A program made the translations under genes and the position numbers. Below, one piece after another: positions 9 through 25,538 of a stretch of 64,000 bases of DNA. Location: positions 91,099 to 155,098 of the IMG/VR virus record IMGVR_UViG_3300048999_000192. One strand, given 5' to 3'. Origin of the DNA: a virus. Each line of letters opens with the position of its first letter. Positions within the stretch are counted from its first letter, which is position 1. The notes under the pieces are model-generated. The model made no database searches. It was not told the origin of the DNA and saw only the letters and a list, made by a program, of their open reading frames with translations.

Positions 9-425
9 GTGGCGCACCGTAAGGCGGCCAAGGCCCTGAACAAGCCCGAGCTGATGAAGCGCATCAGCATCCACGAGCGCGTCACCCGCCGCTTCGCCCG
101 CAAGAACCCCAGCGCTCTGGTGCGGGGCTTCTACGTGCAGGCGGGGACGTCCACCGACCTGCTGACCATGGGCCCTGGCGCGAGCCCGGACCCGATGGGC
201 GGCACGCCGATCAATGGGCCCGGCACCCCGCCGCCCATGGAAGGCGGCACCGACCCGGCGCGGCCGGGTGGGCCCGCGATGTACAACGGCGCGCCGCCGT
301 ACGGCTCGCCGGTCGCTCCGGACCCGGTGATGGGCCAGCAGGGCACGCCGGACGCCGCGCAGCGCCAGGCGGCGTTCCGCACGGTCGTCCAGGCCGAGCT
401 CAAGAAGATGCAGGAGGCATCGTGA
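9..425 (+). CDS. C-terminal part of a head-region protein (probably starts upstream of the window)
   Basis: High-GC3 ORF overlapping the next start (GTGA); Pro/Gly-rich; RKAA and YVQA junction-like motifs. Confidence 0.6.
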   Translation: MAHRKAAKALNKPELMKRISIHERVTRRFARKNPSALVRGFYVQAGTSTDLLTMGPGASPDPMGGTPINGPGTPPPMEGGTDPARPGGPAMYNGAPPYGSPVAPDPVMGQQGTPDAAQRQAAFRTVVQAELKKMQEAS

Positions 426-1696
426 CGACCGATCAGTTCGCGTCCCTGTGGACCGAGGCCTCCCGGGACGTGGAGCGCGAGAACGCGCTGCGTGCCGAGG
501 CCCTGGCCAGTGCCAAGCTGGGCGCGGTTTGGCCCTTCTTCGCCCTGGCGCAGTCCAAGCCGGAGCTGGAGCATCGCAAGGCGCTGGCACGTGAGTCCCT
601 GGAGGAGATCGCGGCCAGCACCGGCCTGCCGCTGGCCCGCATCGCCGAGATCATCGACCAGCACTTCACCCTGCTCGCCGAGGCCCGCATGTCCAAGCAG
701 GCCGAGGAAGAGGAGGGCGGCCAGTGGGAGGTCGTCGACAAGGCTACGGACGCAAAGGTCGCAGGCCCTTTCGATGATCGGGAGAAGGCACAAGAGGCCA
801 TCGCGGACAACGACTCCGGGCTGCCTTCTTCCGAGCTGAAGATCGTGCCGGTGAACGAGTCCGAGGACGAGGGCGAGGAGAAAGAGGCCAGCCTCCGTCA
901 CCAGGCCATCCCCGAGGGCGAGAACATCCTGGCCGAGACGGTCAACGACGCCTCTGGTGCCTTCCCGGCCTCGGTCGAGAAGCTGCCCGAGCACGATGAG
1001 GGCCCGGACGCCAACATCCCGCCGGAGGCCTACTCCACGGTCAGCATGCCCCAGCCGGGCGACTCGGGTGCGAGCAACCCGCAGTCCATGGCGGTCAAGA
1101 TCGACATGAGCGTGGCCGAGGCGCGCAAGATCATGCAGCTCGCACTCACCGGCAGTCGTAAGACCGCCGTCGGCGAGTACGTCGACCCGTCCCAGCAGCA
1201 GGGTCAGCAGGCCCCGATGCCGGACGCGCCGGAGTCGGCCACCGGGATGGACACCGGCATGCCGCCGGAGGGCCAGCCGACTCCGGGCCAGGATCCGGGT
1301 GGCCAGGTCGCCACCGACCCCTACCCGATGACCACCAAGCCCGCCCAGCAGCCTGGCGCGCCGGGCGGCGGCGGGGACATGGGCGGGGACACCGAGGGGG
1401 ACGGCGGAGACCCCGTCTCGGACCAGATCGACCAGGTCACCTCGGCGATTCGCAGGGACAACCCCGGGGTCAGCACGTCGGTCGCCAGGCGGGTCGCCCG
1501 CCAGGCCGTGGCCAAGATGCTGACGGCCGCCGGGAGCGACGGGATCGACTACACCCACCCGACGATCCCCAAGGCCGCCCCGGCGGGCGGCGAGGAGGAC
1601 GAGGACGAGAGCCTGGCCGGTCACGCCGCCGAGACGGCCGGAGCCGGTGCCGCCCTGAAGGTCCTGCCCAAGGTTCTTCCGCTACTCGCCCTGTAG
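422..1696 (+). CDS. Acidic head-associated hypothetical protein with repeated xxA junctions
   Basis: 424 aa ORF with GGAGG RBS; KQA, KEAS, HQA, RKTA, RQA, LTAA motifs. Confidence 0.75.
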   Translation: MTTDQFASLWTEASRDVERENALRAEALASAKLGAVWPFFALAQSKPELEHRKALARESLEEIAASTGLPLARIAEIIDQHFTLLAEARMSKQAEEEEGGQWEVVDKATDAKVAGPFDDREKAQEAIADNDSGLPSSELKIVPVNESEDEGEEKEASLRHQAIPEGENILAETVNDASGAFPASVEKLPEHDEGPDANIPPEAYSTVSMPQPGDSGASNPQSMAVKIDMSVAEARKIMQLALTGSRKTAVGEYVDPSQQQGQQAPMPDAPESATGMDTGMPPEGQPTPGQDPGGQVATDPYPMTTKPAQQPGAPGGGGDMGGDTEGDGGDPVSDQIDQVTSAIRRDNPGVSTSVARRVARQAVAKMLTAAGSDGIDYTHPTIPKAAPAGGEEDEDESLAGHAAETAGAGAALKVLPKVLPLLAL

Positions 1697-1704
1697 GAGA
1701 TGAC

Positions 1705-2193
1705 GTGCTCGACGGACTGACCGTGGCCTATGCCGGGCAGCCGGGTGACCTCCAGCCCGGGGACCGTGGTGAGGTGCTCAGCGCCGACTATCAGTACGCC
1801 CACGTGCTTTGGCACACCGGGGCGCTGACCGGTCAGGTCCGTCTGCACGACACCGGTGATCTCGACCTGAGCCCCTCCATGGTCTCGCCGGTCGCCCGCC
1901 ATATCGAGGCGAGCCTGGACGACTCCCTGGAGGTCGGCTCGATCGAGATCACCTCGGCCCGCCAGACCTATGACTCCTCAGGCCCGGCGGGCGTACTGGA
2001 GCAGATGTCGCTGGGCGGCCAGCTCGACCAGCTCTCCGACATCGGGGACGAGGTCTACACTCTCGTGACGAGCCGGGTCAGGACGAGCCCGTACGTCCGC
2101 ACCATCACGGCCCAGCTCGATGAAGAAGAGGCCGAAGAGGTCGTGCGGATGACCTCGGCCGCGTTGCTCCAGGGCCTGCTGGCCGAGGAGTAG
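1705..2193 (+). CDS. Hypothetical virion-region protein
   Basis: AGGAG RBS, GTG start, high-GC3 codon usage. Confidence 0.7.
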   Translation: MLDGLTVAYAGQPGDLQPGDRGEVLSADYQYAHVLWHTGALTGQVRLHDTGDLDLSPSMVSPVARHIEASLDDSLEVGSIEITSARQTYDSSGPAGVLEQMSLGGQLDQLSDIGDEVYTLVTSRVRTSPYVRTITAQLDEEEAEEVVRMTSAALLQGLLAEE

Positions 2194-2217
2194 CGCCCGA
2201 TCTCCCCCGGAGGACCT

Positions 2218-2373
2218 ATGACCAAGTGCATGTACGACAGCTCGATCACCTGCGGCAAGAACTGCAGCAACTGCCCCGGCGGTCGGGCGCGGGTGCAGGT
2301 CGTCCCGTATCGCAAGTCGCGCTGGAGCATCGACGCCGTCTGCGTCGAGGTGGGCGTGTTCGAGCTCCGCTAG
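2218..2373 (+). CDS. 51-aa Cys-rich peptide with a DUF397-like motif (YRKSRWS..VCVEVG); not in ORF track
   Basis: GGAGG RBS; manual translation MTKCMYDSSITCGKNCSNCPGGRARVQVVPYRKSRWSIDAVCVEVGVFELR. Confidence 0.7.
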   Translation: MTKCMYDSSITCGKNCSNCPGGRARVQVVPYRKSRWSIDAVCVEVGVFELR

Positions 2374-3096: not shown

Positions 3097-3318
3097 ATGG
3101 CGAACCTGAGCCGGAAGAACTACACCGAGATCGCCGAGGCCGTCGGCATCGAGCGTCGCGCGGTGAGCGCCAGTGACCGCGAGGGCTACACCCGCGAGGA
3201 GGTCGCCGAGATGCTCGACGCGATCTCGACCCGCCTCGCCCGCGCGATGACCGGCACCAACGCCCAGTTCAACCGCCCCCGCTTCCTGGAGGCCTGTGGC
3301 GTGGAGGAGGGCAAGTGA
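3097..3318 (+). CDS. Small phage hypothetical protein (FNRPRFLEACG C-terminus)
   Basis: 73 aa; C-terminal motif recalled from small phage early proteins. Confidence 0.75.
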   Translation: MANLSRKNYTEIAEAVGIERRAVSASDREGYTREEVAEMLDAISTRLARAMTGTNAQFNRPRFLEACGVEEGK

Positions 3319-4507: not shown

Positions 4508-4557
4508 GCTGTCCACGAGCCCCACCACACCCCGAAAGGGTGGAGGTGGGGCTTCGT
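4508..4557 (+). terminator. Hairpin closing the accessory island, overlapping a degenerate late-promoter motif and the next RBS
   Basis: ACGAGCCCCACC...GGTGGGGCTTCGT; GCTGTC-N20-GAAAGGGTGG at 4508-4543. Confidence 0.55.
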
Positions 4558-7500
4558 GCGTCCTGGGGAAGAGTCGGCTCGGTCCGACGCTGGCAAGCAG
4601 ACCGTCTGGCCGGTCGCTGTCGGCGGCGGCCTGGTGGACATGTGCGCCCACCACAAGACGATCCACGAGGGGCACTCCAACCTCGCCAACCAGATCGCCG
4701 CCCAGACCGGCCTGGCGCAGGAGGAGCACGAGGAGCTCACCCCGCACACCGGCACCTGCGTGGAGTGCAAGCGCCGCGCGGGCAAGGGCGAGCTGATGCA
4801 CTCGCTCGACTCGGCGCTGCCGACCGGATATCGCAAGAAGCAGGATCAGAGCGACCGTACGCCCCGCAGGCCGTTCGAGCCGGGCAAGACCCGCACCAAG
4901 CCCCTGGAGCCCCTCCCGCCGTCTCTGAACGCCGTGCAGGCCTCCTCCGAGGAGATGCGCCCGCTGCCGGGAGCGCTCTACCACGTCACCACGGCCCGGG
5001 ACGCGGTGCTGGCCCACGGCCTGAAGAACCGCACCGAGCTCGGCCAGCAGTACGGCCACGGCCTCGGTGGCGGCCGGGACGACACGATCTCCCTGACGAC
5101 CCACCGGCCGACGGCCGAGCACCTGCTGCACTCCCTGCACGAGTACCACGACGTGCTCAACGGCAAGATCAAGCTGGCCGACCTGAAGGAGAAGGCCCGG
5201 CAGGGAGTCGGGGCCGAGAAGCCCTATGACTACATGCTGAAGGACCACGCTGACGAGGATCTCGCCGCCGCCGACAAGGGCCGGGCGATCGAGCACCGGA
5301 TGCACGACCGCTCCGAGGTGGGCGAGGACTGGAAGCCCCTGGACGAGGGCATGCATGGCACCGGCCCCCAGGGGGAGTACCACCTCCACATGGCCTGGGA
5401 CCGGCCGCTGGACCGCTCGGAGCTGCTCCACAAGCGTGATGACGTCTACAAGAAGTTCTCCTGGGGGCGTCAGGGCGCGGGTGGTCACCCCGACCCCCTG
5501 TTCATCGCCAACGACCCCGGCGAGTTCGTCAAGAAGGACCCGGGCCAGTTCGCCCTGATGCACGTGCGCCCTCACGAGGGAGCGCACGGGATCCAGATGA
5601 ACGACCGCACCGAGGGCACCGACGCGGGGGAGTGGCGGGCGCTGTCGGGCAAGGATCTCCACGTCGTGCACCACGAGGGCCGAGAGGCCATCACGCCCCG
5701 TACGGCCGCCGCTGACCACCACGTCTTCTATCACGTCACGGACAATCCGAACTTCGAGCTGAGCACCACCCACCGGCCGCACCTGAACCTGGAGGGCGGT
5801 GAGGACGAGCACCGCGAGCCAGGCATCCACATGGCTGACCACGAGGGCATCAACCGCTGGATGGGCACCGGCGGGTACATCAGGCCGTACATGGTGGAGC
5901 TGCACGCCCACCCCGAGCTCGACGACCACCCCGACACCGAGCACGGCTTCGCCCGCGAGCGTTACGTCCCGGCCAAGCACTACGACAAGCTGAAGGTCCA
6001 CCGCGTGATCCCGCTCGACGCCTGGGACCGCGAGCAGGGCGGTTATGGCCACATGGAGCAGTCGCTGGGCTCGGAGTACGACACCGGCGCGCCCATCGCC
6101 AGCTCACACGAGGACCGGCCCTACCGGCCCCGGACGCCCTACACCGGCCCGGACGCCCGCGAGATGACACCGGAGCAGCACCAGCACCACACCGACCGCT
6201 ACGACCGGTTCATGAGCGACCGCATCAGCCGTCAGGCCGCCTCGTATCCGATCAAGTACACCCGAATGACCCAGAACGGGTACGAGGACGTCGAGGACGA
6301 GATCGAGGGCCCGCTGTTCCACGGCAGCCGCTCCAAGCGCCTGCAGCCGGGCGACATGATCACCAAGGGCCGCAAGACCAATCCCTGGGGCGACCAGGGC
6401 CCCAAGAGCCAGACGGTCCACTTCACCGTGCACCACGACACCGCGCGGGACTACGCCGACCAGGCGGGCGGCCACGTCTATGAGGTCGAGCCGACGGGGG
6501 AGTTCAAGCACGACTACTCCGGCGGCGACTTCAAGACCGCGCACCCGCTGCGCGTCGTGCGCATGGTGCCGCGTTCGGAGTGGGAGGCCTCCAAGGAGGC
6601 CAGCCGCCGTACGGCCATGACTCCGGAGCGCCGCGCCGAGATCGAGCGCATCCGGCAGGAGCGCAAGAACCGTCCCCGCCGCCCGGCCGGTCAGCCGCGC
6701 GCCGACGCGTTCTCGCACCTGTTCACGCCGATCCCCGAGCACGAGCTGGAGGAGCAGCGCCAGGCGCGTATGCCCAAGCCCGAGCCGATCAACGACAAGA
6801 CCTACTCGATCGGCGACGTCAGCAAGCACTACGAGTGGGAGGGCTTCGACCCGTACGAGATCGAGCACCTCGTGCATCACCCGGAGCACGCCCAGTTCAC
6901 CCACGAGGACGTGCCGGTGCACAGCCTGCGCCACATCACCGAGCACGGCGAGCTCGTCAAGCCGCCGTCCTACCGCGACATCGCCGACCAGGGGGATGAC
7001 GAGCAGGAGCGGCTCGGGGAGCTGGAGCGCGGGCACGACGACGGCGCCCACATCCCGCCCATCGTCGTCGTCCGCCACGGCGAGCACCACATCATCGCCG
7101 ACGGCTCCCACCGGGCGGCCATCGCGGCCGAGCGCGGCCACACCCACATCCCGGCCTTCGTCACCGAGCGGACGATCATGCCCAAGACCGGTCGCATGGG
7201 CGATGGCGGCCCCGACCCATTCGAGCGTACGGCCGCGATGCACAACCCCAACGCCAAGGCGGGGCAGGCCGAGGACGAGTGGTACCACGGCAGCCCGCAC
7301 GACTTCGACAGCTTCAGTGACACCGGGTCAAGTAACGACACCGAGGACCACGTCAACCACTGGAACGTGCTCCTGGGCAACCACTTCACTGCGACCCACA
7401 ACGTGGCGCATGACTTCAGCCTGGGCCTGCACCACGCCTCGGACGCGAACGGCAACGACGACGCCGAGGAGCCGCTGGGCCACGTCATCCACGCCAGGCT

Positions 7501-9211
7501 GCACATCAAGCGGCCCAAGGTCTACAAGTCCGAGCACGACATGGACCAGGAGGTCCACGAGCACGAGGTGAAGCGCGGCAACCTGCTCGACCCGCACCTG
7601 CCCGAGACGCCGCACGAGGACGCCGACGATGACGAGTGGGACGACTACTACGCCGACGCCGGGCACGCGCGGGTCTACCGGGGTGACAGCCATGGGCCCT
7701 TCGGCCCGAACGAGCCGGACCCGAACGTGGCTCACGGCTTCCACCCCAAGGCGACCGGCTGGCTGAACCACCACCCGGACAAGGAGGGCATCGCCGCCCG
7801 CCACAAGGCCCGGCTGATCAAGCAGGGCTACGACGGCATCGTCTACGGCAATGAGTTCGAGCGGGCCGACGCCGGGGGCAAGGAGAAGTCCGCCATCGCC
7901 TTCCATCCGCATCAGGTCGAGATCACCCAGCACCACTACGGCCGCACCGGCCAGTGCCTGAACCCCGAGGAGTGCGCCCGGCAGCGCGCGGCCGACCACG
8001 ACCCGGGCCAGCTCGCGCTACCCATGGAGCACACTTCGGCCCTGACGGCGGGCGGCGTCAGCCGTCTCGCACTGCCGCTTCCGGCGGAGTGCTGGAGCCG
8101 GTACCGCTCGACTCTGGGCGACCGTACGGCCTCCTGGGACGACGATGACGAGTGGAGCGAGGACGAGACCTTCCACTGCCCGGCGTGCGGCGAGGACCAT
8201 GAGGACGAAGAGACGCGCGACAACCACATGATGGCCCATACCGACTGGGACAGGGTGCATCCCAAGCTTCCCGACACCCTGCACCGGGGCATGGCCGTCT
8301 CGCTGCCGGACGAAGTCCATGACGTCGTCCACGATGAGTCGCGGCCGTCGGCCGAGCGGGCGCAAGCGCTGGCCGACCACGTCAAGAAGCGTGGGCTGGG
8401 CATGCACTTCACGGACGACAAGCAGCAGGCCGCGCACTACTCGCACGTCTACCACCAGCCTGGCGACACCCACGTGATCGTGCACTCGCGCAAGCCGGAC
8501 ATGCATCACATCGAGACCGACCCCGGTGAGCTCGAATCCCAGCAGGTCATCGGTTATGGCCAGCACGATGACAACGAGATCCCGATTCGCTCCGGCGCGC
8601 CCGTGCACGCCACCGGGATCTCCTGGAAGCACGAGGATCCCAAGGCCGACTGGCATACGCACAACTTCGGAAGGTCCATGGAAATGACCGCGATGCGCAA
8701 GCAGGCCCACGACAGCGGTGACGGTCAGCGGATCTTCCACTGCCCGTTCTGCGGTGCTGGCCAGGTGATCGCCCGTTCGGACGGCACCACCGAGTGCGAG
8801 TTCTGCCACCAGGCCTTCACGGTCCAGGTGCAGCCGCAGTTCAACAGCTTCCCGCAGACCGACCCGACCACCGGCCTGCCGATCATGATCCCGGGCATGC
8901 CGGGCCAGATCGATGCCCCTGGCACGCCGCCAGGGGCTCCAGGAGGCGCTCTGCCGCCCGGAGCGGACGAGGAGTCGGACAACCCGTTCGCGGCCGACAG
9001 CGGTGACGAGAGCGGCCCTCCCGGGGCCGATGACGGTGGGGACGACTCCGGCGATGGCGGGGACGATAACAAGCCGGACTTCCTGAAGGGCTCCAGCTTC
9101 CGGACGGCCTCGGGCGACCTGCTCACCGAGGCGGCCTACACCCGCCACCTCGCGCTGCGCTTCTCGGCCAACCCTGAGAAGATGATCGAACTGCTGCGGA
9201 GCGGGCGATGA
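4556..9211 (+). CDS. Polyvalent polyprotein: about five ADP-ribosyltransferase-like domains (one Arr-like, one ART-PolyVal-like), a ParB/Srx domain and a C-terminal Zn ribbon
   Basis: LYHVT..ISLTT..GEW; FYHVT..GIHM..ERY; LFHGS..VHFT..VYEVEPTG; PPIVV..IADGSHRAA; WYHGS..GNHFT..GYDGIVY; LHRG..GMHFT..NEI; CPFC..CEFC. Confidence 0.75.
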   Translation: MRPGEESARSDAGKQTVWPVAVGGGLVDMCAHHKTIHEGHSNLANQIAAQTGLAQEEHEELTPHTGTCVECKRRAGKGELMHSLDSALPTGYRKKQDQSDRTPRRPFEPGKTRTKPLEPLPPSLNAVQASSEEMRPLPGALYHVTTARDAVLAHGLKNRTELGQQYGHGLGGGRDDTISLTTHRPTAEHLLHSLHEYHDVLNGKIKLADLKEKARQGVGAEKPYDYMLKDHADEDLAAADKGRAIEHRMHDRSEVGEDWKPLDEGMHGTGPQGEYHLHMAWDRPLDRSELLHKRDDVYKKFSWGRQGAGGHPDPLFIANDPGEFVKKDPGQFALMHVRPHEGAHGIQMNDRTEGTDAGEWRALSGKDLHVVHHEGREAITPRTAAADHHVFYHVTDNPNFELSTTHRPHLNLEGGEDEHREPGIHMADHEGINRWMGTGGYIRPYMVELHAHPELDDHPDTEHGFARERYVPAKHYDKLKVHRVIPLDAWDREQGGYGHMEQSLGSEYDTGAPIASSHEDRPYRPRTPYTGPDAREMTPEQHQHHTDRYDRFMSDRISRQAASYPIKYTRMTQNGYEDVEDEIEGPLFHGSRSKRLQPGDMITKGRKTNPWGDQGPKSQTVHFTVHHDTARDYADQAGGHVYEVEPTGEFKHDYSGGDFKTAHPLRVVRMVPRSEWEASKEASRRTAMTPERRAEIERIRQERKNRPRRPAGQPRADAFSHLFTPIPEHELEEQRQARMPKPEPINDKTYSIGDVSKHYEWEGFDPYEIEHLVHHPEHAQFTHEDVPVHSLRHITEHGELVKPPSYRDIADQGDDEQERLGELERGHDDGAHIPPIVVVRHGEHHIIADGSHRAAIAAERGHTHIPAFVTERTIMPKTGRMGDGGPDPFERTAAMHNPNAKAGQAEDEWYHGSPHDFDSFSDTGSSNDTEDHVNHWNVLLGNHFTATHNVAHDFSLGLHHASDANGNDDAEEPLGHVIHARLHIKRPKVYKSEHDMDQEVHEHEVKRGNLLDPHLPETPHEDADDDEWDDYYADAGHARVYRGDSHGPFGPNEPDPNVAHGFHPKATGWLNHHPDKEGIAARHKARLIKQGYDGIVYGNEFERADAGGKEKSAIAFHPHQVEITQHHYGRTGQCLNPEECARQRAADHDPGQLALPMEHTSALTAGGVSRLALPLPAECWSRYRSTLGDRTASWDDDDEWSEDETFHCPACGEDHEDEETRDNHMMAHTDWDRVHPKLPDTLHRGMAVSLPDEVHDVVHDESRPSAERAQALADHVKKRGLGMHFTDDKQQAAHYSHVYHQPGDTHVIVHSRKPDMHHIETDPGELESQQVIGYGQHDDNEIPIRSGAPVHATGISWKHEDPKADWHTHNFGRSMEMTAMRKQAHDSGDGQRIFHCPFCGAGQVIARSDGTTECEFCHQAFTVQVQPQFNSFPQTDPTTGLPIMIPGMPGQIDAPGTPPGAPGGALPPGADEESDNPFAADSGDESGPPGADDGGDDSGDGGDDNKPDFLKGSSFRTASGDLLTEAAYTRHLALRFSANPEKMIELLRSGR

Positions 9212-9378
9212 AGGTCTGGGTCCTGGTCGACTTCACCGGCCCCTCCGGCCAGCGGTACACCAAAGGCAGCCAGCTCACCCTCCCCAATGACACGCCCGAG
9301 CAGCAGGCCTACGTCTCGTCACTGATCCGCTACGGCATCGTGACGACGGCCAAGCCCGCGACAGGAGCCACCACGTGA
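9208..9378 (+). CDS. 56-aa protein coupled between polyprotein and portal; not in ORF track
   Basis: ATGA and GTGA overlaps on both sides; MKVWVLVDFTGPSGQRYTKGSQLTLP... Confidence 0.65.
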   Translation: MKVWVLVDFTGPSGQRYTKGSQLTLPNDTPEQQAYVSSLIRYGIVTTAKPATGATT

Positions 9379-11573
9379 CCGACGACTTCGCGAACCGCAT
9401 CGCCGGTGTCCAGAGCGCCATGAAGGCCAAGTCCCCGTTCTCTCGTAAGCGGGCGCAGGACACCGGCACCGGCGAGGCGGCCGAGATGCGCCGCAACCGC
9501 GCCGTGAACAAGAAGGTCGCCGCCGCAGGGTCCGGCAGCGACATCTCCTTCGCTACCGGCCGCCCGAGAGATCCCCTTTTCTACTGGAAGCAAAATAACC
9601 TTCCATATGACTTCGGTAAGCATGAGGAGCTGCGGAAGGTAAGAGCATTCTGTCGCCTTCTGTACCAGACTGACTCAATTATCGGTTCGGCGATCGACAT
9701 CTACTCCAAGTGGCCGCTGATCGGCATGGAGCTGTCGTGCAAGGACCAGAAGCTGACCGACTTCTACACCAACCTTTTCGGATTCGGTGAGGACGCCGAC
9801 GACAGCTCGCTCGACTACGAGGCCTTCCTGCCCCGCGTCGGCCGGGAGTACTGGACCGTCGGTGAGGCGTGGCCATTCGCCACGTTCAACCCGATGCTCG
9901 GTGTCTGGGAGGACGAGGAGCTCCTGCAGCCGGACGACGTCGATGTCCAGCGCAGCCCGTTCCTGAAGGACCCGAGGTTCTTCATCCGGCTGCCCGAGAC
10001 CATCCGCCGCCTGATGCAGACCCGCCAGCCAGCCTGGGAATACAACAAGCTGATGCAGGCGTATCCCGAGCTGGTCAACTACACCCACGAGAACCAGCTC
10101 ATGCCGGTCTCCAACATCCTGCTGCAGCAGATCAAGTTCGAAGGCGACACGTTCAACCCGCGCGGTGTCCCGCTGCTGACCCGCGCCATGCGCCCGGTGA
10201 TGCAGCAGGAGATGCTCAACGCGGCCATGGACGCCATCGCCGACCGGATGTACACCCCGCTCATCCTGGTCAAGCTCGGCGCGTCCGCCTCTGACCTGGG
10301 CACCAACGCCCCGTGGATCCCGACCGGTGATGACCTCGCCGATTTCGAGGAGGCGCTGGACGCGGCGCTGGCCGCCGACTTCCGCGCGCTGATCTACAAC
10401 TTCGCGATCGACATCGAGTCCGTGTTCGGCCGGGAGCAGATGCCCGACCTGACGCCGGACTTCGAACGACTCGAAGACAAGATCCTCCAGACGTTCGGCC
10501 TGTCCCGGACACTCCTGACCGGTGCCTCGGCCGGTGAGACCTACGCCGCCGACGCGCTGAACCGCGACCTGATCACCCAGCTCCTGACGCACTACCAGAA
10601 GCTGATCAAGCATCACTGGCGGCAGCGGGCGCTGGTCGTCGCCGAGGCCCAGGAACATTTCGACTATGACGTCCGCAATGGGAAGCGCTACGTCAAGATG
10701 GAAGAAATCCTCGAAGTCGACGAGGAGACCGGCGACGAGCGCATCATCGAGCAGCCCAAGCTGCTGATCCCCGACCTGCACATGCAGACGATGAACCTGC
10801 GGGACGAGGAGCAGGAGCGCCAGTTCATGGAGGCGCTGCGTCAGGGCGGCGTGCCGATCTCCATGAAGACCAGGGTCCGTAACCTCCCGATCGACCTGGA
10901 CGAGGAGATCGAGCGCAGCCAGGAGGAGGCCGTCCAGCTCATCGTCTCCGAGGCCGAGACCCGCAAGCGTGCCTACCAGGCGCTGCGCAACAACGGCCTG
11001 CCGATCCCGGACGACCTGCGCACCGAGTTCGAGGCCCTCGCCCAGCAGGCGCAGCAGCCCAGCCCGGCACTGTCGGCTGGCCAGCCGCAGATGATCCCCC
11101 AGCTCGGCCAGGACCCGCAGGCCGCCGACACGCCCAACCTCGCCCCGACGCAGCAGGACTTCCAGAACGACCCGCAGGACGAGTCCTCGGTGATGGCCCC
11201 GGTCATCCCGATGCCGATGGCTCCCCCGGGCGGAGAGGAAGAGGGCGACGCCCGGCCGGAGGAGTCCGACGAGGAGCGCGACGGCATGCCCACCTCGGCC
11301 GTGCTCTACCGGAAGGCCCAGAGCATGCGCACGGTGGCGGCCACCCGGCACGCCGACGTGGTCGAGGCCGAGCAGAAGCTGGCCCGCGAGCAGGCCTGGG
11401 CCGAGTGGGAGGTCAATCGCGTCGAGGCCGCCGCCAACGGCACCGACATGCCCGCGACGCCGCCAGAGGACCTGACCGCCTACACGGTGCCCGCCCAGAT
11501 GCGCGGCCCGATGCACATCGGCCAGCGGCGCAACCTCGATCGGGACTGGAAGGCCGCGCTCGACGACGACTGA
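9375..11573 (+). CDS. Portal protein
   Basis: 732 aa; GREYWTVGEAW, RGVPLL.RA, YTPLILVKLG motifs typical of portals; RPRDPLFYWKQNNLPYD resembles Bxz1-type portals (recall). Confidence 0.8.
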   Translation: MTDDFANRIAGVQSAMKAKSPFSRKRAQDTGTGEAAEMRRNRAVNKKVAAAGSGSDISFATGRPRDPLFYWKQNNLPYDFGKHEELRKVRAFCRLLYQTDSIIGSAIDIYSKWPLIGMELSCKDQKLTDFYTNLFGFGEDADDSSLDYEAFLPRVGREYWTVGEAWPFATFNPMLGVWEDEELLQPDDVDVQRSPFLKDPRFFIRLPETIRRLMQTRQPAWEYNKLMQAYPELVNYTHENQLMPVSNILLQQIKFEGDTFNPRGVPLLTRAMRPVMQQEMLNAAMDAIADRMYTPLILVKLGASASDLGTNAPWIPTGDDLADFEEALDAALAADFRALIYNFAIDIESVFGREQMPDLTPDFERLEDKILQTFGLSRTLLTGASAGETYAADALNRDLITQLLTHYQKLIKHHWRQRALVVAEAQEHFDYDVRNGKRYVKMEEILEVDEETGDERIIEQPKLLIPDLHMQTMNLRDEEQERQFMEALRQGGVPISMKTRVRNLPIDLDEEIERSQEEAVQLIVSEAETRKRAYQALRNNGLPIPDDLRTEFEALAQQAQQPSPALSAGQPQMIPQLGQDPQAADTPNLAPTQQDFQNDPQDESSVMAPVIPMPMAPPGGEEEGDARPEESDEERDGMPTSAVLYRKAQSMRTVAATRHADVVEAEQKLAREQAWAEWEVNRVEAAANGTDMPATPPEDLTAYTVPAQMRGPMHIGQRRNLDRDWKAALDDD

Positions 11574-11621: not shown

Positions 11622-14600
11622 ATGCGGATGCAGCGTACGGCCCGGCAGCACACCACGCTCCAGGCGACGGCAGGGGTCAACAGCGAGGACTACTTTGACT
11701 TCCGGCCCAAGCAGCGGGTGATGACGGCCGACGGGTACCCGGGCCGCGTCGAAGCCGTGCACGATGGCCCGCACGCCGGGAGCGAGGCGTACGAGGTCGT
11801 CCTGGACGGCGGCATGGGCGGTGGGCTGTACGCCTCCAGCCAGCTCCACGCGCTCGCTGACGACGCTCACACGGCCGCCGGGGACTACCCCGAGCTGGAG
11901 GACGTCCTCTCCGCCCGGCCCGACCCGGCCAAGCAGGTCGTGATGGCCAAGAAGGCCGCGCGCAAGAGGGCGTCGACCCTCCCCGACGATCACCCCGACA
12001 AGGTCTACCTCCGCTTCGGCCACTGGCCGAAGAACGAGCGTTCCGCGAATGGCGTCACGGGCCACCCAGAGGACGGGGTGAGCGTCTACGACCTTGACCA
12101 CAAGGGCGAGCCCATGGACCCGGACCCCAACCTCAGCCGGGGCCACGAGCATGACGAGTCTTGCGATCCGGACTGCGATCTCGATAGCTGGAACGAGGAC
12201 TACGGCAACGACACCCGCGAGGAGATGAACGGCCGGGTCTATCGCGCGGAGAAGGCGCGGGCCAACGGTCACGACTACCGGGGCGAGGTCGGCCACCTGG
12301 TCAAGGGCAAGATGACGGGCATCGGCCACGATGGTGAGCCGCTGCTGAACAACGTCAAGCGCGTCGGTGACTGGATCGACCACCGGCACATGTTCATCCC
12401 GACGGCGAGCCCGCACCGGCTGGCCAGGGGTGAATACGACGAGGACTACGAGCCGCCGTCGTCCAAGCTGGCCACCACCCAGAACGGCACCCGGATCGAC
12501 GGCCACGGTGAGGCCCCGCACGAGGTGCGCGCCAAGGACCCCAACGGCTACGACGCCAAGAGCACCGAGGGCGACCCGGACCCGCTCATGTCCAAGCCGC
12601 TGACCAAGAAGGACGAGGTCGGCGCGCACGGGGGCGAGCTCGGCAAGGGGATGTCCGGCGTCTCCTTCGAGGGCGCGATGTCCCCCATGCAGAAGCAGAA
12701 GATCGAGGACCGCGAGGACGCCCGGCAGGACGTGGTCGATCAGCATTCGCAGGTGAACGACGCCCGGCGCGACCGCACCGACGTCGGCGACGTCCAGCGG
12801 GTCGAGGACCCGGCGTACGCCAAGTACCTGCAGTCCCTGAACGCGCTCACCGTACGGGCCGACTGGGACGACCCGGAGCACGGCGCGGAGTGGCGGCGTC
12901 CCTGGGACGTGATGCCCGTCCACCACGACGACGGCCGCTGGCACGACCCCGAGCTGGACAAGAACTACGAGCACGACACGGCCGAGCCTGAGGCCGACGA
13001 CTCCTCCACGGCCCACGCCGCGCACCTGCACCTGCCGAACCCGGAGGAGGACCCGGACGCGCTGGCCAGCCACATGGTCGACGCACACGGCTACGACCTG
13101 GACAAGGTCAAGCAGATGATGATGGTCCACCGGCTGATGAGCGGCCAGCACGAGATGGACCACGAGACCGAGCCGGGTGGCATGGGCCTGCACCCCGACG
13201 ACTTCTCCCTCCCGCACGACCACCCGGACCGCTGGCTGGAGCACGGGTCGATCCCGGGGCCGGAGGGCGGCGTCGAGCAGGCCGGAGCCCGTGGCGACAC
13301 CGGCCACGCGCTCGACAGCAGCAGGCCGTTCGAGCTCAAGCCCTGGCATATGAACTACTCGCTGAGCTCGCTGGCCGACCCGTACGCCCTGGTCGCCTCG
13401 GCCGCCCAGGACCGGGACCTGGGATTCCAGCTCACCGCCGCCTGGACCGACGTTCGCAACAAGGCCAAGCGGATCCGGTCAGAGGGCAAGGTCAGGATCA
13501 CCCTGGCCAGTGACGGCCTGGTGGCTGGTGAGGTGCAGGGGGACCACCAGACGTATGAGACCGGCATCCAGCGCCTGCCCGGCTCCCGCCACGGCGTGGC
13601 CACCTGGAGCTGCGGCTGTAAGTGGGGCGCCTACCACTGGGGCGCCAGCGACGACTTCAGCCGCTTCGCCGGTCGGATGTGCTCTCACGCCCTGGCCCTG
13701 CAGTACGAGGCCCAGAGTCGGGGGATGTTCGGCAAGACCGTCGAGGTCGACACCTCCAAGCCGGACTGGGTGCCGCCGCGCGTGGTGGTCAAGTACAACC
13801 CCGACACCGGCCACAGCGACTTCGCCAAGTCCTCCTCACTGGTCACCCCCGAGCTGTCCCCGCTGCAGATCTTCTGCGCGTACGCGGGCAACGACGGGGA
13901 GACCGCCGACCAGATCACCTGCCTGCTGCACACGGCCGGGCTGGTCGAGGGGTACTCCAACAGCCCGTGGGGCGAGCCGATCGCCGAGGTGCCGCCCAAG
14001 CCGTACGGGGCGACCCAGCCCGCCAACAAGTGGGAGGACCCGGGCAGCGCCGGGTTCCTCGCCACGCCCGACCCCGAGGACTGGGGCGGTCTGGGGCAGA
14101 ACAACCAGATGTACTCCACGTCCAGCCTGGACGAGGCGGTGTTCGAGCCCGTCCTGGCCAGTCCCCAGGGGGCGTATGAAGATCAGGACAGTCCTGCCGA
14201 TCCGGAGGGCCTGGAAGCGACCCTGCACGACACTCCCGAGCCAGCTCTTCCCGAGACCGACGGCGGCCGGGAGGACATGGTCGGCGAGCACGCCGAGGAC
14301 CTCACGCCGGACGACCAGTCGATGATGACGGTCGGCAACCAGATGGGCGGGGCCGACGAGGTCCTGGACGAGACCCAGAACACCACCCCGCAGGACCTGG
14401 ACGACGTCGTGGCGCGCTTCCAGGCCTCCGCCGGGGCCAAGGCCATCATGGCCGACGCCGGGACTCCCAGCGGGCCTGCAGCGCGCGAGGGGGCCTCCGC
14501 CGCGCCCTCGGACGGCGACATCGCCGCCCACGCGCGCCAGGTGCTGGCCCTGAAGGCCTTCAGCCCGGCCGAGCAGGCCTCCCTGATCAACGAGGGCGTC

Positions 14601-14690
14601 GGGGAGCGCGCGGCCAACTTCGACAAGCTCGACATCGCCGGGACGCACTACGCCGACCTGGACGACGAGGACGACACATGGCTGAGCTGA
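11622..14690 (+). CDS. Second head-region polyprotein (SH3-like N-terminus, possible R-S-E ART-like module, SWIM-type Zn finger)
   Basis: YLRFG..GVSVY..GEPLL; WSCGCKW..CSHALA; RTA, HTAA, KRAS, LTAA, HTAG junctions. Confidence 0.7.
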   Translation: MRMQRTARQHTTLQATAGVNSEDYFDFRPKQRVMTADGYPGRVEAVHDGPHAGSEAYEVVLDGGMGGGLYASSQLHALADDAHTAAGDYPELEDVLSARPDPAKQVVMAKKAARKRASTLPDDHPDKVYLRFGHWPKNERSANGVTGHPEDGVSVYDLDHKGEPMDPDPNLSRGHEHDESCDPDCDLDSWNEDYGNDTREEMNGRVYRAEKARANGHDYRGEVGHLVKGKMTGIGHDGEPLLNNVKRVGDWIDHRHMFIPTASPHRLARGEYDEDYEPPSSKLATTQNGTRIDGHGEAPHEVRAKDPNGYDAKSTEGDPDPLMSKPLTKKDEVGAHGGELGKGMSGVSFEGAMSPMQKQKIEDREDARQDVVDQHSQVNDARRDRTDVGDVQRVEDPAYAKYLQSLNALTVRADWDDPEHGAEWRRPWDVMPVHHDDGRWHDPELDKNYEHDTAEPEADDSSTAHAAHLHLPNPEEDPDALASHMVDAHGYDLDKVKQMMMVHRLMSGQHEMDHETEPGGMGLHPDDFSLPHDHPDRWLEHGSIPGPEGGVEQAGARGDTGHALDSSRPFELKPWHMNYSLSSLADPYALVASAAQDRDLGFQLTAAWTDVRNKAKRIRSEGKVRITLASDGLVAGEVQGDHQTYETGIQRLPGSRHGVATWSCGCKWGAYHWGASDDFSRFAGRMCSHALALQYEAQSRGMFGKTVEVDTSKPDWVPPRVVVKYNPDTGHSDFAKSSSLVTPELSPLQIFCAYAGNDGETADQITCLLHTAGLVEGYSNSPWGEPIAEVPPKPYGATQPANKWEDPGSAGFLATPDPEDWGGLGQNNQMYSTSSLDEAVFEPVLASPQGAYEDQDSPADPEGLEATLHDTPEPALPETDGGREDMVGEHAEDLTPDDQSMMTVGNQMGGADEVLDETQNTTPQDLDDVVARFQASAGAKAIMADAGTPSGPAAREGASAAPSDGDIAAHARQVLALKAFSPAEQASLINEGVGERAANFDKLDIAGTHYADLDDEDDTWLS

Positions 14691-18954: not shown

Positions 18955-18990
18955 GCTGTGCAGGCCCCTCTCACCCCGAGGAAGAGGTGA
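18955..18990 (+). promoter_or_regulatory. Putative late promoter
   Basis: GCTGTG-N20-GAAGAGGTGA. Confidence 0.7.
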
Positions 18991-19004
18991 CAGAGGGGAA
19001 GGTC

Positions 19005-22000
19005 ATGCTGCGGAAGATCGCGACGCTGGAAACGCTGGAGGCGTACCGGGTCCCGGCGCACGCCGACGCACGCGCCCTGCGCAAGGCCGCCCACCGGGTG
19101 AGCTTCGAGTACACCCCCCGCCCGGGGTACCTCTACGTGCGTTCGCGGGCCATCAGCTCCCGGTGCAACGACAACTTCGACGAGTTCCCAGCCGAGGAGA
19201 TCGCGAAGGCCTACGCGACCTTCAAGGGCAAGCCGGTGTTCGTCAACCACCACAACGACGACCACCGGCGGATGCGTGGCGTGATCATCGACGCCGCACT
19301 GCATCAGGATCGCAACCCCGACGGCACCCCGGACACCTGGGCCGAGGTCCTGATGGAGGTCGACGCCAAGACCTTCCCCAAGCTCGCCAAGGCGATCCTG
19401 GCCGGTGAGGTCGACCGTACGAGCATGGGCTGCGACGTCCAGCTCTCGGTCTGCTCGGCGTGCGGCAACAAGGCCACCAACCCGGCGGAGTACTGCCAGC
19501 ACATCCCGGCCATGAAGGGCCAGCGCATCTTCCGCGCCACCGCCTCCGGCCAGCGCGAGGGGCACCTGGTCCGGGAGATCTGCTACGGCCTGGGCTTCTT
19601 CGAGAACTCCCTGCTCGTCGAGGAGCCCGCCGACCCCACCGCCTACTTCCTCGGCGTGGACGACCGTGGCATGAGGGCGACGGCCACTCAGCACGGCGAA
19701 GAGCCGCCCGGATGGATCAACGACGTCAAGGACCAGGCGGATGAGCTGGCGAGCCGTAACGGCCACAGCATCTCCTGGAAGTACCGAGGCGAGCCCCAGT
19801 GGAAGAGCAGCTCGGGTTACGTCGCAGGCTGGCAGGGCGAATGCGCCAACGATGGGTGTGATGCTCCGGCCAGTCAGACCAGCCGGGCTCACACGGACAA
19901 GGTCCGCACCATCAGCATCCGCGAGGACCAGCCCGGCGAGCTGAAGGACATGATGCCGCCGTTCCTGCGGCGACGCTGCAAGGGGACCACGGTGGAGTCC
20001 AGCCGGAAGACGGCGGCCGAAGATCACTGGGCCATGCCGATCTTCCAGCACTTGAAGGACGCGCACGGCCTGGATGACGATCAGATCGCCGAGGGCATGC
20101 TCGCCGCCGGAGCCGAGCCGAACATGAACCAGGGCATCAAGCTCGACCATCTGTTCCACGCCCACAAGAACCTGCACGGCGGGGACTACCAGACACCGAC
20201 CGGCGCGCAGCGGCACGGGCACACCCCCGAGGACCCGCTGATCTCCAGCGAGTTCAGGCCCTCACGCATGCAGATGAATCAGTCGGAGATCTACAACGAC
20301 AAGCCCGCCTGGGGACCGAGGAGTCTCGGCCCGTACCGGATGCGGGCGGACGAATACGGCGATTTCAAGCCTCTTCGGCAGTCGCAGAACGCCAAGACGG
20401 CCGACGTCCGCCACAACCCGCAGTACGAGGGCACCCATTGCCTGATGTGCGGCGACCCGGTTCGCTGGAATTCCAACCCGGCCAAGCAGAGCCTGCCCAG
20501 CGGGGGCTGGTACCACCACGACAGCATCAAGCGCGATCACCACGCGCTCCCGGCTGACCCGGAGGCCGTGATGAACGACGTCCCTCGCCAGGACGCCCAG
20601 CGAGACCAGATCGACGCGCAGATCCGCGAGCAGTACGGCTTCGGCCCCAAGCGGCACAAGGACATGCCGCTGGACCCCTTCGTATCCGCCTACGCGCCCG
20701 AGCTGGACGAACTCGGCCCGGTCGAGGCCGCCGCCGGTCCGAAGTACCCCGACCCGGCCGATCACCCGTTCTTCAAGAAGAACCCGATCAACCATCAGCA
20801 CATCGTCGACACCTACAACGAATCCGACGAGGGCACGCGGGCGCAGGGCAAGCGCTGGTACCCCGACGCGCACATCCTGGCCAAGGCGATCGACCCCGAG
20901 GGCAACGCGGCGCGCGGCGCTGGCGTGCTGTCGGCCTACTCCCCACAGACCTCCTGGCCGGTCAACGCCATGAACGCCGCCCGGTCCCTGCAGCGTGGCA
21001 AGGCCATGCAAAAGGGCGAGGGCCAGATCATGGCCAGTCACGCCAAGAGCGCCCAGCGCATCATCGAAGGCGAGCACCACAGCGACGTCTTCAAGGGCCC
21101 CAAGATCCGGGCGTTCGCCCACCTGATCGAGCACGGCGGTGATGACCACTCCGTCGTGGTCGACCGGCACGCGCTCTCGGTGGCCATGGGCAAGCGCGTC
21201 AGCAAGGACGACCTCGCCGACGCGCCGCTGAGCACCCCGCACTACTACGGCCACGTCGAGCGGGCCTACCAGGACGCGGCCAAGCAACTGTCCGGCCAGC
21301 ACGGTGAGACGATCCACCCGCACGAGGTGCAGGCGACCACCTGGCTGCAGCAGCAGAAGCGCAACGCGGTCGACAACGAGACCGCCCGGGGCGGCCAGGG
21401 CAAGGGCCTGATCACCCGGGACAAGAACGACTGGCGCGACTGGGAGAACTACCACCAGAAGAACCACCCGGACCTGCCCAAGAGCCTGCACACCACCAAC
21501 CCGCACGCCCCCAAGACCGAGGCGATGCGCAAGGGTGCGCCGTTCGCGGGCTATGAGGACTTCGCGGCGTGTGTCGCGGCCAACCAGGACAAGGACGACC
21601 CCGAGGCCTACTGCGGCTCGATCAAGCACAAGGTCGAGGGTGCCCAGCACACCGCCGCGCACAGGGTCTACGTCGACCAGGCCGAGGGCAGTCACGGCCG
21701 GATGGTCACCTTCAGCGGCGAGGACAAGGGCGGCTACCTCAGCCGGGGCGACGGCACGTGGATGGCCGAGAACGACAACGGCTCGGTGGTGCACGAGCAC
21801 CGCGACCACAAGCGGGCCCTGCGCGGCCTGGCCGATCACTACGGCCTGACCGGCGATCTCGACGTCGAGTACACACACGAGGGCACCGGGAACAGGAAGA
21901 ACTTCACCGTCCCGGGCAAGACGGCCGCGCTGAACGACGTCGTGGCCCCGCCCGAGGTCGACACGCTGCGGGATGAGGAGTGCCCGGTCTGCGGTGAGGT

Positions 22001-23828: not shown

Positions 23829-23875
23829 GCGAACGGCCCGGCGGGCTTGGGGAGAGGACCGCCGGGCCGTTTCGC
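23829..23875 (+). terminator. Hairpin terminator
   Basis: AACGGCCCGGCGG...CCGCCGGGCCGTT. Confidence 0.7.
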
Positions 23876-23895
23876 ATTTCCGGGGTGATCGGCTT

Positions 23896-23933
23896 GCTGT
23901 CAAAACGGCCTCCGGAGCAGCCTGAAGAGGTGA
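23896..23933 (+). promoter_or_regulatory. Putative late promoter of capsid genes
   Basis: GCTGTC-N22-GAAGAGGTGA. Confidence 0.65.
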
Positions 23934-24006
23934 AGGAGCCCGTCTCGCATCGGACATACGAGCGGACGGCAAAGTTGTCCGATAAGAAGAGATGGGAGGT
24001 GCAGGG

Positions 24007-24546
24007 ATGCTGCGGACTCGGCTGAATAACTCGTACATCAAGCGGACGATTCGACCGCTGTACGGGTTCACTCAGGCCACGCCCCAGAGCGTCTTCCTGG
24101 ACCCGTCGTGGGATCGCTCCACGCCGATCTACCCGGGCATGGCGCTGGTCAAGACGACCGGCGACCAGGTCACGCTGTGCGGTGCAGGTTCCGGTGCGGG
24201 TGGGGTTGGCACGGCTGCCAACAACATCCCGGTCGGCCTGTGCGGCCACTACATCGGTGGCGACGGCATTGACGAGCTGCTCGACGTCGGCATGAACATG
24301 CTGGCGAACTGGGTGCTCGCCCCCGACGCTCAGTTCGAGATCCTCGCCCCGGCGTTCGACACCACGGCCGACTGGGCCGGGGCGGACAACGGCGACGGCA
24401 CCGAGGACCTGATCTACGTCGCCACGGCCGCCGGATTCATCGGGAAGCTCACGCTGACCGGTGTCCACTCGCCGACGACCGCGCCGGTGGCGCGCCTCGT
24501 CAAGGCGAACTCCGCGACCAAGATCACGATTGCGGGGGTCCGATGA
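24007..24546 (+). CDS. Capsid decoration/minor capsid protein
   Basis: Directly upstream of and coupled to the major capsid gene; IYPGM motif; GGAGG before ATG 24007. Confidence 0.65.
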   Translation: MLRTRLNNSYIKRTIRPLYGFTQATPQSVFLDPSWDRSTPIYPGMALVKTTGDQVTLCGAGSGAGGVGTAANNIPVGLCGHYIGGDGIDELLDVGMNMLANWVLAPDAQFEILAPAFDTTADWAGADNGDGTEDLIYVATAAGFIGKLTLTGVHSPTTAPVARLVKANSATKITIAGVR

Positions 24547-25538
24547 GCAGCTACCTGATGCCGTCGGCAAACGGCAGCCTGCGCGGCAAGGTCGCGAAGA
24601 AGTCTGACGACTACGTCGGCCAGATCCTGGCGCGGCGCGAGGGTGGGGCAGGCCCCCTCTCGCACCAGGCCAAGGTCCAGAAGATGGCCATGATCCTCAA
24701 CGACGAGGTCAACGGCTTCCGCCGCCTCGGCGTCGGGATGGTGGGGCCCATCCAGCTCAAGCTGCGCTACCAGGGCATCACCCGGAACGTTCTCGTCGAG
24801 GACGCCGTCACCCCCGGCACGCCGGTGGAGTACGACGTCTGGGACGACCTCGGCCAGGCGTACCTGATGTCGGGCACGGAGGGCGAAGTTCGCGTAACGC
24901 CCTTCGAGGGCAAGAGGATCCCGGTGCGCTTCTGGCGCATCGCGAGCCGCCCGGCGATCCGCAAGGAAGACCTCTACTACCTGCGGATCAACGCCGTCGA
25001 GCAGGCCCAGGACGAGACCAAGCAGGCCATCCTGAAGGCGGAAGACTCCCGCCTCCTGGTGCTCCTGCAGGCCGCCGTGACGGACTACGCGTCGCGCCCG
25101 GACCACACGGTCACGCCCAACCACAACATCACCGAGGCGTCGGGCTACCTGACCCCGGGCTCGCTGTACAGCGCGGTCGCGATGACCGACATGCACGAGC
25201 TCCAGTCGGCCCGCATCCTCATCAACCCGTTCGACTTCCGCGACCTCTACCGGTGGGACATCAACGCCACCGGCTGGGCGTTCAAGGACCGGGTGGTCGC
25301 CGGTGAGACCATCACGTCGTTCGGTGAATTCCAGATCCAAAGGTCGATCATCGTCCCCCAGGGGAAGATCTTCCTGACCCCGGAGCCCAATTTCCTGGGC
25401 GTCTTCCCGGTGCTCTACTCGCTCGATGTCGAGGAGAACCACCACGTGGAAGCGTTCTGGAAGGGATGGGTCTTCGACGAGATGGTCTCCATGGCCATTC
25501 TCAACCCGCGCGGAATCGCGACCATCACCAAGTCCTGA
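24543..25538 (+). CDS. Major capsid protein (HK97 fold, Bxz1-like)
   Basis: 331 aa; MVGPIQLKLRYQGITRNVL, AEDSRLL, MAILNPRGI; followed by terminator. Confidence 0.85.
   Translation: MSSYLMPSANGSLRGKVAKKSDDYVGQILARREGGAGPLSHQAKVQKMAMILNDEVNGFRRLGVGMVGPIQLKLRYQGITRNVLVEDAVTPGTPVEYDVWDDLGQAYLMSGTEGEVRVTPFEGKRIPVRFWRIASRPAIRKEDLYYLRINAVEQAQDETKQAILKAEDSRLLVLLQAAVTDYASRPDHTVTPNHNITEASGYLTPGSLYSAVAMTDMHELQSARILINPFDFRDLYRWDINATGWAFKDRVVAGETITSFGEFQIQRSIIVPQGKIFLTPEPNFLGVFPVLYSLDVEENHHVEAFWKGWVFDEMVSMAILNPRGIATITKS

Follow-up and report, generated by a model that had tools for sequence, protein, structure and literature searches.

A basic-Thr-Ala motif at module borders of giant head-region proteins in an actinophage-like element, a candidate cutting signal of its capsid protease

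Introduction

In the herpesvirus assemblin/scaffold (UL26-type) system, the protease is fused N-terminally to the scaffold and cuts after Ala and before a small residue, (V/L)-x-A↓S (here and below, the arrow marks a known or putative cut), with one site just after the protease domain and the other near the scaffold C-terminus. T4 gp21 (with internal proteins IPI-III and Alt) and phiKZ gp175 are also assemblin-fold proteases, and they cut many head proteins, including injected enzymes, after Glu. Here we describe the head region of an actinophage-like element, IMG/VR record IMGVR_UViG_3300048999_000192, as seen in a 64,000-nucleotide (nt) window (positions 91,099 to 155,098 of the record; window coordinates are used unless otherwise stated) that is the final part of a 155,098-bp contig of 67% G+C. 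Very large proteins encoded around its portal, protease, and major capsid protein (MCP) genes carry a recurrent motif, [R/K/H]-T-A followed by a small residue, at borders between unrelated domains, and comparisons of these proteins and their homologs suggest that the capsid protease encoded by the phage itself most likely cuts at this signal.

The prohead protease gp245 of the giant phage SPN3US cuts many head proteins at AXE, and its cuts identified so far, its own self-cleavage excepted, remove N-terminal propeptides (PMC10052503). Iyer, Burroughs, Anand, de Souza, and Aravind (2017) described polyvalent proteins of phages and conjugative elements, proposed that they are packaged in capsids, drew an analogy with polyproteins whose products are released by embedded peptidases, and noted rare assemblin-like peptidase domains located at C-termini (PMC5512222). 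The proteins described here resemble polyvalent proteins in being multi-domain, in being encoded beside virion genes, and in containing ADP-ribosyltransferase (ART) and ParB-like conflict domains; the Pfam family ART-PolyVal matches one of them, a protein of 1551 amino acids (aa). They differ from the polyvalent-protein account, which invokes mainly autoprocessing by zincin-like metallopeptidase (MPTase) domains, places assemblin-like domains at C-termini, and includes no junction motif, in having the protease at the N-terminus, with cargo placed between it and the scaffold, and in the bracketing of modules by a specific [R/K]-T-A-small signal. Literature searches returned no description of a junction motif bracketing cargo modules, or of cargo embedded between a protease and a scaffold.

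Results

A sequence-only reading of this window had reported a motif of the form [RKH]-[TQV]-A at domain borders of head-region proteins, and every instance that it listed is present where it was placed. To measure enrichment, we compared motif counts with those expected from each protein's own amino-acid composition, in four large proteins (open reading frames (ORFs) 422-1696, 4556-9211, 11622-14690, and 18870-23522) and in the other 39 ORFs, which include the tail genes. [RKH]TA occurs 16 times in the four large proteins (3.66 expected, Poisson p = 1.6e-6) and 5 times in the other 39 ORFs (10.0 expected; large versus other, Fisher p = 2e-6). The corresponding counts for [RKH]QA indicate weak enrichment (8 versus 2.9 expected in the large proteins and 9 versus 5.65 in the others), and those for [RKH]VA none (2 versus 3.5 and 13 versus 9.04). 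Thus, it is Thr at the middle position that carries the signal; Val, included in the motif as first proposed, is not enriched in the cargo proteins. Extending the motif by one residue sharpens the separation, with 10 copies of [RKH]TA[GAS] in the four large proteins (0.9 expected) and none in the other 39 ORFs (2.7 expected), and an unbiased tripeptide scan of the window returned RTA as the most enriched tripeptide in the four large proteins. The core motif is therefore given here as [R/K/H]-T-A followed by G, A, or S, with Q or E at times in place of T.

Counted literally, [RKH][TQV]A is enriched in the 424-aa (6 versus 1.0) and 1551-aa (10 versus 3.3) proteins, in ORF 18870-23522 (7 versus 3.6), and in the MCP (3 versus 0.6); the 1022-aa protein has 3 copies (2.0 expected), the portal has 1 (1.5 expected), and the tail genes are at background, in keeping with the earlier impression, formed without a count, that the motif is rarer there. 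Genome-wide, 16 of 20 [RKH]TA[GAS] sites fall in five large proteins, including proteins of 758 and 1966 aa.

The same signal is present in related phages. RTA ranks first among tripeptides in 14 large head proteins of Myrna, Catera, Rhodococcus phage E3, and Gordonia phage RedWattleHog (33 versus 5.3 expected, p = 4e-16), and ASR, SRR, and TAG are also high, giving an extended context A-S-R-[R/K]-T-A-[G/A/S]. When these 14 proteins and the four from the window are taken together, the residue after Ala is G, A, or S at 47 of 60 sites (78%). In all four relatives, the motif clusters in the large proteins encoded near the portal and protease, with 7 copies in RedWattleHog gp9 alone (0.5 expected). 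Among 120 Streptomyces-type protease-fusion homologs the mean is 3.1 copies versus 0.87 expected, and 112 of the 120 exceed expectation; ORFs of at least 700 aa on 47 viral contigs contain 157 copies versus 53.5 expected. Codons at the motif sites vary among relatives, indicating that selection acts on the peptide.

Within this genome, CGT-ACG-GCC encodes 7 of the 8 RTA sites of the large head proteins, where codon usage predicts ~2.6% per site, and the Thr codon is ACG at 13 of 16 [RKH]TA sites (30% overall in this genome). The shared codons at RTA sites could reflect recent joint copying or a codon-pair effect. The DNA word CGTACGGCC has 15 matches versus 0.7 in shuffles; we rejected it as a DNA-level element causing the peptide motif because its genome-wide excess is modest (~5-fold above a third-order Markov expectation, rank 37 among frequent 9-mers), it occurs on both strands, and relatives use other codons.

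The position of the motif relative to domains is clearest in the 1551-aa protein. A search of aa 352-1551 against 1.8 billion representative proteins gave 895 matches, many of them giant themselves (up to 3714 aa) and each having only some blocks in common with the query, and the best 150 were re-aligned locally to locate peaks in the starts and ends of high-scoring segment pairs (HSPs). Six of seven homology-block boundaries coincide with motif sites, which delimit modules at aa 384, 561, 687, 893, 1192, and 1384 (Table 1). An AlphaFold (AF2) model of aa 540-1200, read where confident, places an Arr-like fold between RQA↓A and RTA↓M. The fold after it extends to near aa 874, and from there the model has low confidence up to RTA↓A at aa 891. 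The model of aa 894-1200 has low confidence, probably due to poor alignment of shuffled homologs. Further along, aa 1229-1384 are paralogous to two ART-like copies in the 1966-aa protein. Domain combinations that characterize polyvalent proteins are present: Arr-ms and ART-PolyVal occur in one protein with a ParB/Srx-like fold between them, and NUDIX and ParB C-terminal domains occur together in the 1966-aa protein. The claim that the motif marks domain borders holds for the 1551-aa protein, in which the sites at aa 660, 735, and 1418 are away from boundaries, and applies to the other proteins more loosely.

The 1551-aa protein ends in a module (Zn ribbon, acidic linker, and PPPFAKKSF-[RK]-T-x-[TSA]-G...RHLA) that is C-terminal in all 66 homologs and is also found as stand-alone proteins of 200-400 aa. 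From this distribution we infer that conserved C-terminal modules are head-targeting anchors to which variable cargo is added N-terminally. The RTA↓S within this anchor, listed as a junction by the sequence-only reading, is not conserved as such: homologs have FRTATG, FRTVTG, or FRTTTG, i.e. F-[RK]-T-[A/V/T] with the Ala not kept, and its use as a cut site is uncertain.

The predicted prohead protease is the N-terminal part of a 1505-aa fusion that likely starts at the ATG at 19005. The fusion consists of the protease domain (aa 1 to ~220), ~760 aa of cargo including DUF7178, and a scaffold-like tail (VDTLRD, Zn-ribbon, acidic, and helical segments) that is conserved and begins at the KTA↓A at nt 21918. 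The protease domain matches PHROG 18299, 'head maturation protease' (E = 5e-22). Sequence searches against PDB, Pfam, and NCBIfam gave nothing useful for it, so that only PHROGs and fold comparison identified the domain. The AF2 core is well modelled (predicted local distance difference test (pLDDT) ~88 for aa 30-220), and VIA-align matches the model to T4 gp21 (5jbl) with Z 9.4 (root-mean-square deviation 3.1 Å over 125 aa) and to herpesvirus assemblins with Z 6.5-8.9 (VZV 8.9, PRV 8.3, HSV-1 7.5, HCMV ~7); Foldseek E-values are weak (0.03). Ser140 (in RTSMG), His82, His87, His100, and His166 are invariant in 31 homologs. On the evidence of the model, the domain has the T4 gp21/assemblin β-barrel fold.

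The fusion has features of both described systems. Like the herpesvirus precursor, it has sites close to its C-terminus (the two RTA sites lie ~30-50 aa from the end), and in relatives there is a site after the protease: K-[T/Q]-A directly follows the domain in Catera, E3, and RedWattleHog. Unlike in herpesviruses, a basic residue stands two positions before the putative cut and cargo enzymes lie between protease and scaffold, and the structural similarity is distant. With the T4 gp21 system it shares a protease fold and a short three-residue motif, whereas the putative pre-cut residue is Ala with a basic residue two positions earlier, rather than Glu as in T4 and the giant phages; a further difference is that sites separate several enzyme modules, which would be retained, and that targeting seems to depend on C-terminal modules.

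Comparison with E3 shows how cargo is accommodated. A block in E3, YGETEAPKEVDTLRKD...DPDLDEAK, begins at the site after the protease domain, and the same block begins at the KTA↓A at aa 1017 in the window (aa 1017-1081 versus E3 gp77 aa 211-265, E = 8e-8); therefore, ~760 aa of cargo lie between two junctions of the fusion, which fits the earlier proposal that junctions allow further cargo to be inserted between them. In RedWattleHog, KQA↓A and LQA↓Y enclose a Zn-ribbon insert of 90 aa. Homologs of the protease domain number 572, and the fusions, of 828-2116 aa, contain DUF7178, NUDIX, HNH, or GNAT domains. Among 121 protease fusions we counted 232 distinct insertions, and a strict motif lies within 3 aa of the boundary in 17% of cases, versus ~3% at random.

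The sequence-only reading also placed the motif near the N-termini of the MCP and portal. For the MCP this is well founded: [RK]-x-A-[KR] stands just ahead of a conserved SDDYV in 37 of 38 relatives, with V (19), T (11), or F (4) at the middle position, and identity rises from 25% before the site to 63% after it. Given this pattern, which is common at propeptide boundaries, the KVA↓K of the MCP is the probable boundary of a ~18-aa propeptide. The portal site is also probable; similarly placed sites read RVA↓S in E3 and RQA↓S in RedWattleHog, and Myrna and Catera lack the Ala.

Other large proteins carry the motif. The 758-aa protein has 4 [RKH]TA sites versus 0.84 expected, with RTA↓S, HTA↓A, and RTA↓G near its N-terminus, and has no Pfam or PHROG match. 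The 424-aa protein has no family match and is possibly a scaffold-like or internal head protein. In the 1022-aa protein, LTA↓AW aligns with RTA↓AW (Myrna), REA↓AW (Catera and RedWattleHog), and RQA↓AW (E3) exactly at the start of the SWIM-like block, and the C-terminal tail common to this family ends in GTHY. Upstream of the window, the 1966-aa protein comprises two ART-like modules, a ParB C-terminal-like domain, and NUDIX, and a phrog_2579 domain begins just after its motif site at aa 581; the 475-aa protein combines a ParB C-terminal-like domain with a LigT/2H phosphoesterase that begins just after KTAKTA. The database record of Rhodococcus phage E3 labels gp70 a structural protein. His is unusually abundant in ORFs 4556-9211, 11622-14690, and 18870-23522, which contain many HH, HxH, and HPD strings.

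Table 1. Coordinates of motif-bearing proteins, junction sites, modules, and neighbouring genes (window positions; the arrow marks the putative cut).
Feature	Position	Strand	Basis or remarks
758-aa low-complexity protein, C-terminal end	3..425	+	starts 1851 nt upstream of window
424-aa acidic Pro/Gly-rich protein	422..1696	+	KTA↓V (nt 1160), KQA, KEA↓S, HQA
1551-aa cargo polyprotein	4556..9211	+	Pfam Arr-ms and ART-PolyVal, homology blocks, AF2, paralogy
Junction RTA↓A	5699..5707, aa 382-384	+	HSP start peak 383, end peak 367
Junction RQA↓A	6230..6238, aa 559-561	+	HSP start peak 556; Arr-like fold begins 2 residues on (AF2)
Junction RTA↓M (context KEASRRTAMTP)	6608..6616, aa 685-687	+	HSP end peak 682, start 712; pLDDT dip between folds
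Junction RTA↓A	7226..7234, aa 891-893	+	HSP start peak 888, end 881; low-pLDDT linker
Junction RTA↓S	8123..8131, aa 1190-1192	+	HSP end peak 1181, start peak 1201
Junction KQA↓H	8699..8707, aa 1382-1384	+	HSP end peak 1378, start peak 1373
RTA↓S, 33 aa before C-terminus, in conserved anchor F-[RK]-T-x-[TSA]-G	9101..9109	+	homolog alignment
Arr-like ADP-ribosyltransferase module	aa 562-684 of 1551-aa protein	+	Pfam Arr-ms, AF2
ParB/Srx-like domain	~aa 690-874 of 1551-aa protein	+	AF2 fold
ART-PolyVal module	aa 894-1190 of 1551-aa protein	+	Pfam ART-PolyVal
Conserved Zn-ribbon/anchor module	~aa 1385-1551 of 1551-aa protein	+	homologs
Portal	9375..11573	+	PHROG 2833, E 6e-149; KVA↓A at nt 9513-9521 ahead of conserved core
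1022-aa polyprotein	11622..14690	+	SWIM-like Zn-finger block aa 605-705 and C-terminal tail, both conserved
Sites in 1022-aa protein	RTA nt 11634, HTA↓A 11868, LTA↓A 13428-13436, HTA↓G 13929	+	sequence
Protease-cargo-scaffold fusion, 1505 aa	19005..23522 (ORF from 18870)	+	PHROG 18299, DUF7178, AF2, E3 gp77 alignment
Junction KTA↓A in fusion	20007..20015	+	motif
Further fusion sites	KTA↓D 20394, HTA↓A 21648, KTA↓A 21918, RQA↓D 22836, RTA↓A 23367, RTA↓P 23430	+	motif
Capsid cement/decoration protein	23992..24546	+	Pfam Phage_cement_3; without motif
Major capsid protein	24543..25538	+	PHROG 2522, E 6e-103; KVA↓K at nt 24588-24596
RTA sites of the CGT-ACG-GCC codon observation	5699, 6608, 7226, 8123, 11634, 23367, 23430		
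Sheath	40063-41595	+	tail gene
Tape-measure-like	48391-50970	+	tail gene
Baseplate wedge	52883-54715	+	tail gene
Minor tail protein	56053-59748	+	tail gene
1966-aa and 475-aa proteins	genome 48704-56028, outside window		same junction motif

Discussion

The motif is non-random, specific to head-module proteins, conserved across relatives, and located at module borders, which confirms what the sequence-only reading observed; its interpretation, that the prohead protease cuts packaged domain strings into injected effectors, is partly supported. Judging from domain matches and folds, at least five large proteins string together unrelated enzyme modules (ADP-ribosyltransferase-like, ParB/Srx-like, DUF7178, NUDIX, Zn-ribbon) with a short signal at the joints, and alignments point to a basic-x-Ala pattern common to the cargo joints, the post-protease position in relatives, and the MCP N-terminus. 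We consider it probable that the joints are cut after Ala by the prohead protease and that the cargo modules are separated in the head and delivered with the DNA. Which bond is cut, which protease cuts it, and that the proteins are packaged and injected are all inferences. Under this model, the precursors would reach the prohead by way of their conserved terminal modules, namely the anchor that ends the 1551-aa protein, the C-terminal tail of the 1022-aa protein, and the scaffold-like part of the fusion. There, the fusion's N-terminal serine protease, of assemblin/gp21 fold, would cut after Ala, freeing itself, trimming the capsid protein and probably the portal, and separating the cargo modules. 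These would stay inside the capsid until they pass into the host along with the DNA. With one common signal on both sides of every module, modules could be inserted, lost, or swapped without disturbing assembly.

Several observations weigh against this reading. The post-protease site is degenerate in this genome (MRATAT), and in the 1551-aa protein the border near aa 129 (AVQA↓S) is the sole one without a basic residue, while KTA660 and RQA735 are buried in folded domains of the AF2 model. In other proteins, only 20-35% of homologous module starts have a strict or near-strict motif, and many have a looser R-R-A-S, R-T-G-A, or K-R-A-A. At HSP boundaries among five distant isolated phages the strict motif is only ~2-fold enriched, in a test weakened by ill-defined boundaries and by variation in the motif. 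Flanks of the sites are no more hydrophilic than background in a flank-hydropathy test, and we dropped the general claim that the sites lie in disordered linkers for this reason. The motif-bearing 1966-aa and 475-aa proteins are encoded ~40 kb upstream of the head genes. Finally, the accessible literature yielded neither proteomic or N-terminal data on these phages nor a cleavage motif in Bxz1-type phages.

The motif could instead be an uncleaved junction signal, acting as a docking or spacing element on the scaffold or capsid interior or as a hinge, with the giant proteins acting intact as the N4 virion RNA polymerase (vRNAP) does. Conserved motifs inside the terminal anchors (F-[RK]-T-x-[TSA]-G and Q-RTA-GRxYS) would be explained in this way, as would flanks that are not linker-like by hydropathy, and some polyvalent proteins are delivered unprocessed (PMC5512222). 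Nevertheless, we regard this explanation as unlikely, since the variable/conserved edge of the MCP and the position right after the protease domain, both of which have basic-x-Ala, are typical processing positions, and the prevalence of a small residue after Ala is typical of a scissile bond.

If the joints are cut, the enzyme could be another protease, either of the host or acting after injection, with the prohead protease trimming only the capsid protein and scaffold. The distance of the 1966-aa and 475-aa proteins from the head module would favour such an enzyme, and Iyer et al. favour post-delivery peptidase processing for some polyvalent proteins (PMC5512222). However, searches of these proteins turned up no peptidase domain besides the prohead protease, and the motif, which tracks phages that share this protease, is present both within the protease's own fusion protein and at the N-terminus of the capsid protein, making cutting by a different enzyme improbable.

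It is also doubtful that the proteins are cut by the prohead protease into disposable scaffold or internal-body material rather than delivered effectors. In T4 and the giant phages, the proteases act mostly on propeptides and scaffold, which they remove and destroy (PMC10052503), and the 424-aa protein, the 758-aa protein, and the tail of the fusion are acidic and of low complexity, as such material might be. Many modules are, however, recognizable enzymes with conserved folds (Arr-like, ART-PolyVal, ParB/Srx-like, NUDIX, LigT, DUF7178), and ARTs and ParB-like DNases are among the domains that Iyer et al. catalogued in polyvalent proteins and proposed to be delivered with DNA. Chance, composition, or inherited functionless linker sequence is a very improbable source of the motif, because, although high G+C makes Ala, Arg, and Thr common and the RTA codons shared within this genome possibly reflect recent copying, the composition-matched expectation is exceeded 4- to 6-fold with other ORFs at or below it, relatives' codons are diverse, and the motif recurs before unrelated modules in hundreds of proteins.

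Extending the preferred reading, in which the prohead protease cuts the joints, we tentatively raise the possibility that the [R/K]-T-A-small joint is a cassette code: any bracketed domain could be dropped into a head-targeted carrier, including the space separating the protease from its scaffold, and released within the capsid as an individual injected effector, and actinophages of this lineage would swap anti-defence enzymes as plug-ins. The codon-identical joints could then mark places where cassettes recently entered through recombination at joints. If cutting does occur, the very large, unannotated genes next to those for the portal and protease in cluster C mycobacteriophages, and in their relatives from Gordonia, Rhodococcus, and Streptomyces, would become readable as lists of separate injected enzymes with module borders predictable from sequence, and the polyvalent-protein hypothesis would gain a concrete processing rule, testable in the culturable phages Bxz1, Catera, and Myrna on M. 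smegmatis. An assemblin-fold protease would then be able to carry cargo between its own release and maturation sites, and the joints would offer a natural way of loading chosen proteins into phage heads.

Genome context and additional observations

The plus strand of the window encodes a head module followed by myovirus tail genes. Relatives keep the same order of portal, protease fusion, cement protein, and MCP; large cargo proteins flank the portal, protease, and MCP, and the sheath and baseplate genes lie downstream. The MCP shares ~60% identity with its counterparts in cluster C mycobacteriophages (Myrna, Catera/Bxz1) and Gordonia Stormageddonviruses, at the DNA level only Rhodococcus phage E3 matches, and the best protease-domain homologs (60-98% identical) are on contigs of ~150-160 kb from Streptomyces assemblies and soil metagenomes. 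These similarities indicate that the element is a 155-kb actinophage-like entity, kin of cluster C mycobacteriophages, with its nearest relatives in Streptomyces assemblies. One close relative in a Streptomyces assembly carries a plasmid label, and the capsid matches include no isolated Streptomyces phage; this phage-like element may persist extrachromosomally in its host.

ORF 3296-3943 matches PHROG 13953 only in its last 78 aa, and G+C content at third codon positions (GC3) favours another frame upstream (3177-3692), which suggests either a frameshift or two separate genes. An AT-rich palindrome, (A/G)TCATTTTAAAAT(C/G)A, occurs in 11 copies in this genome of 67% G+C background (window positions 16458 and 43478 and 9 elsewhere). 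The copies are mostly intergenic and are followed by a CT-rich stretch, and the palindrome looks like a repeated promoter or operator element.

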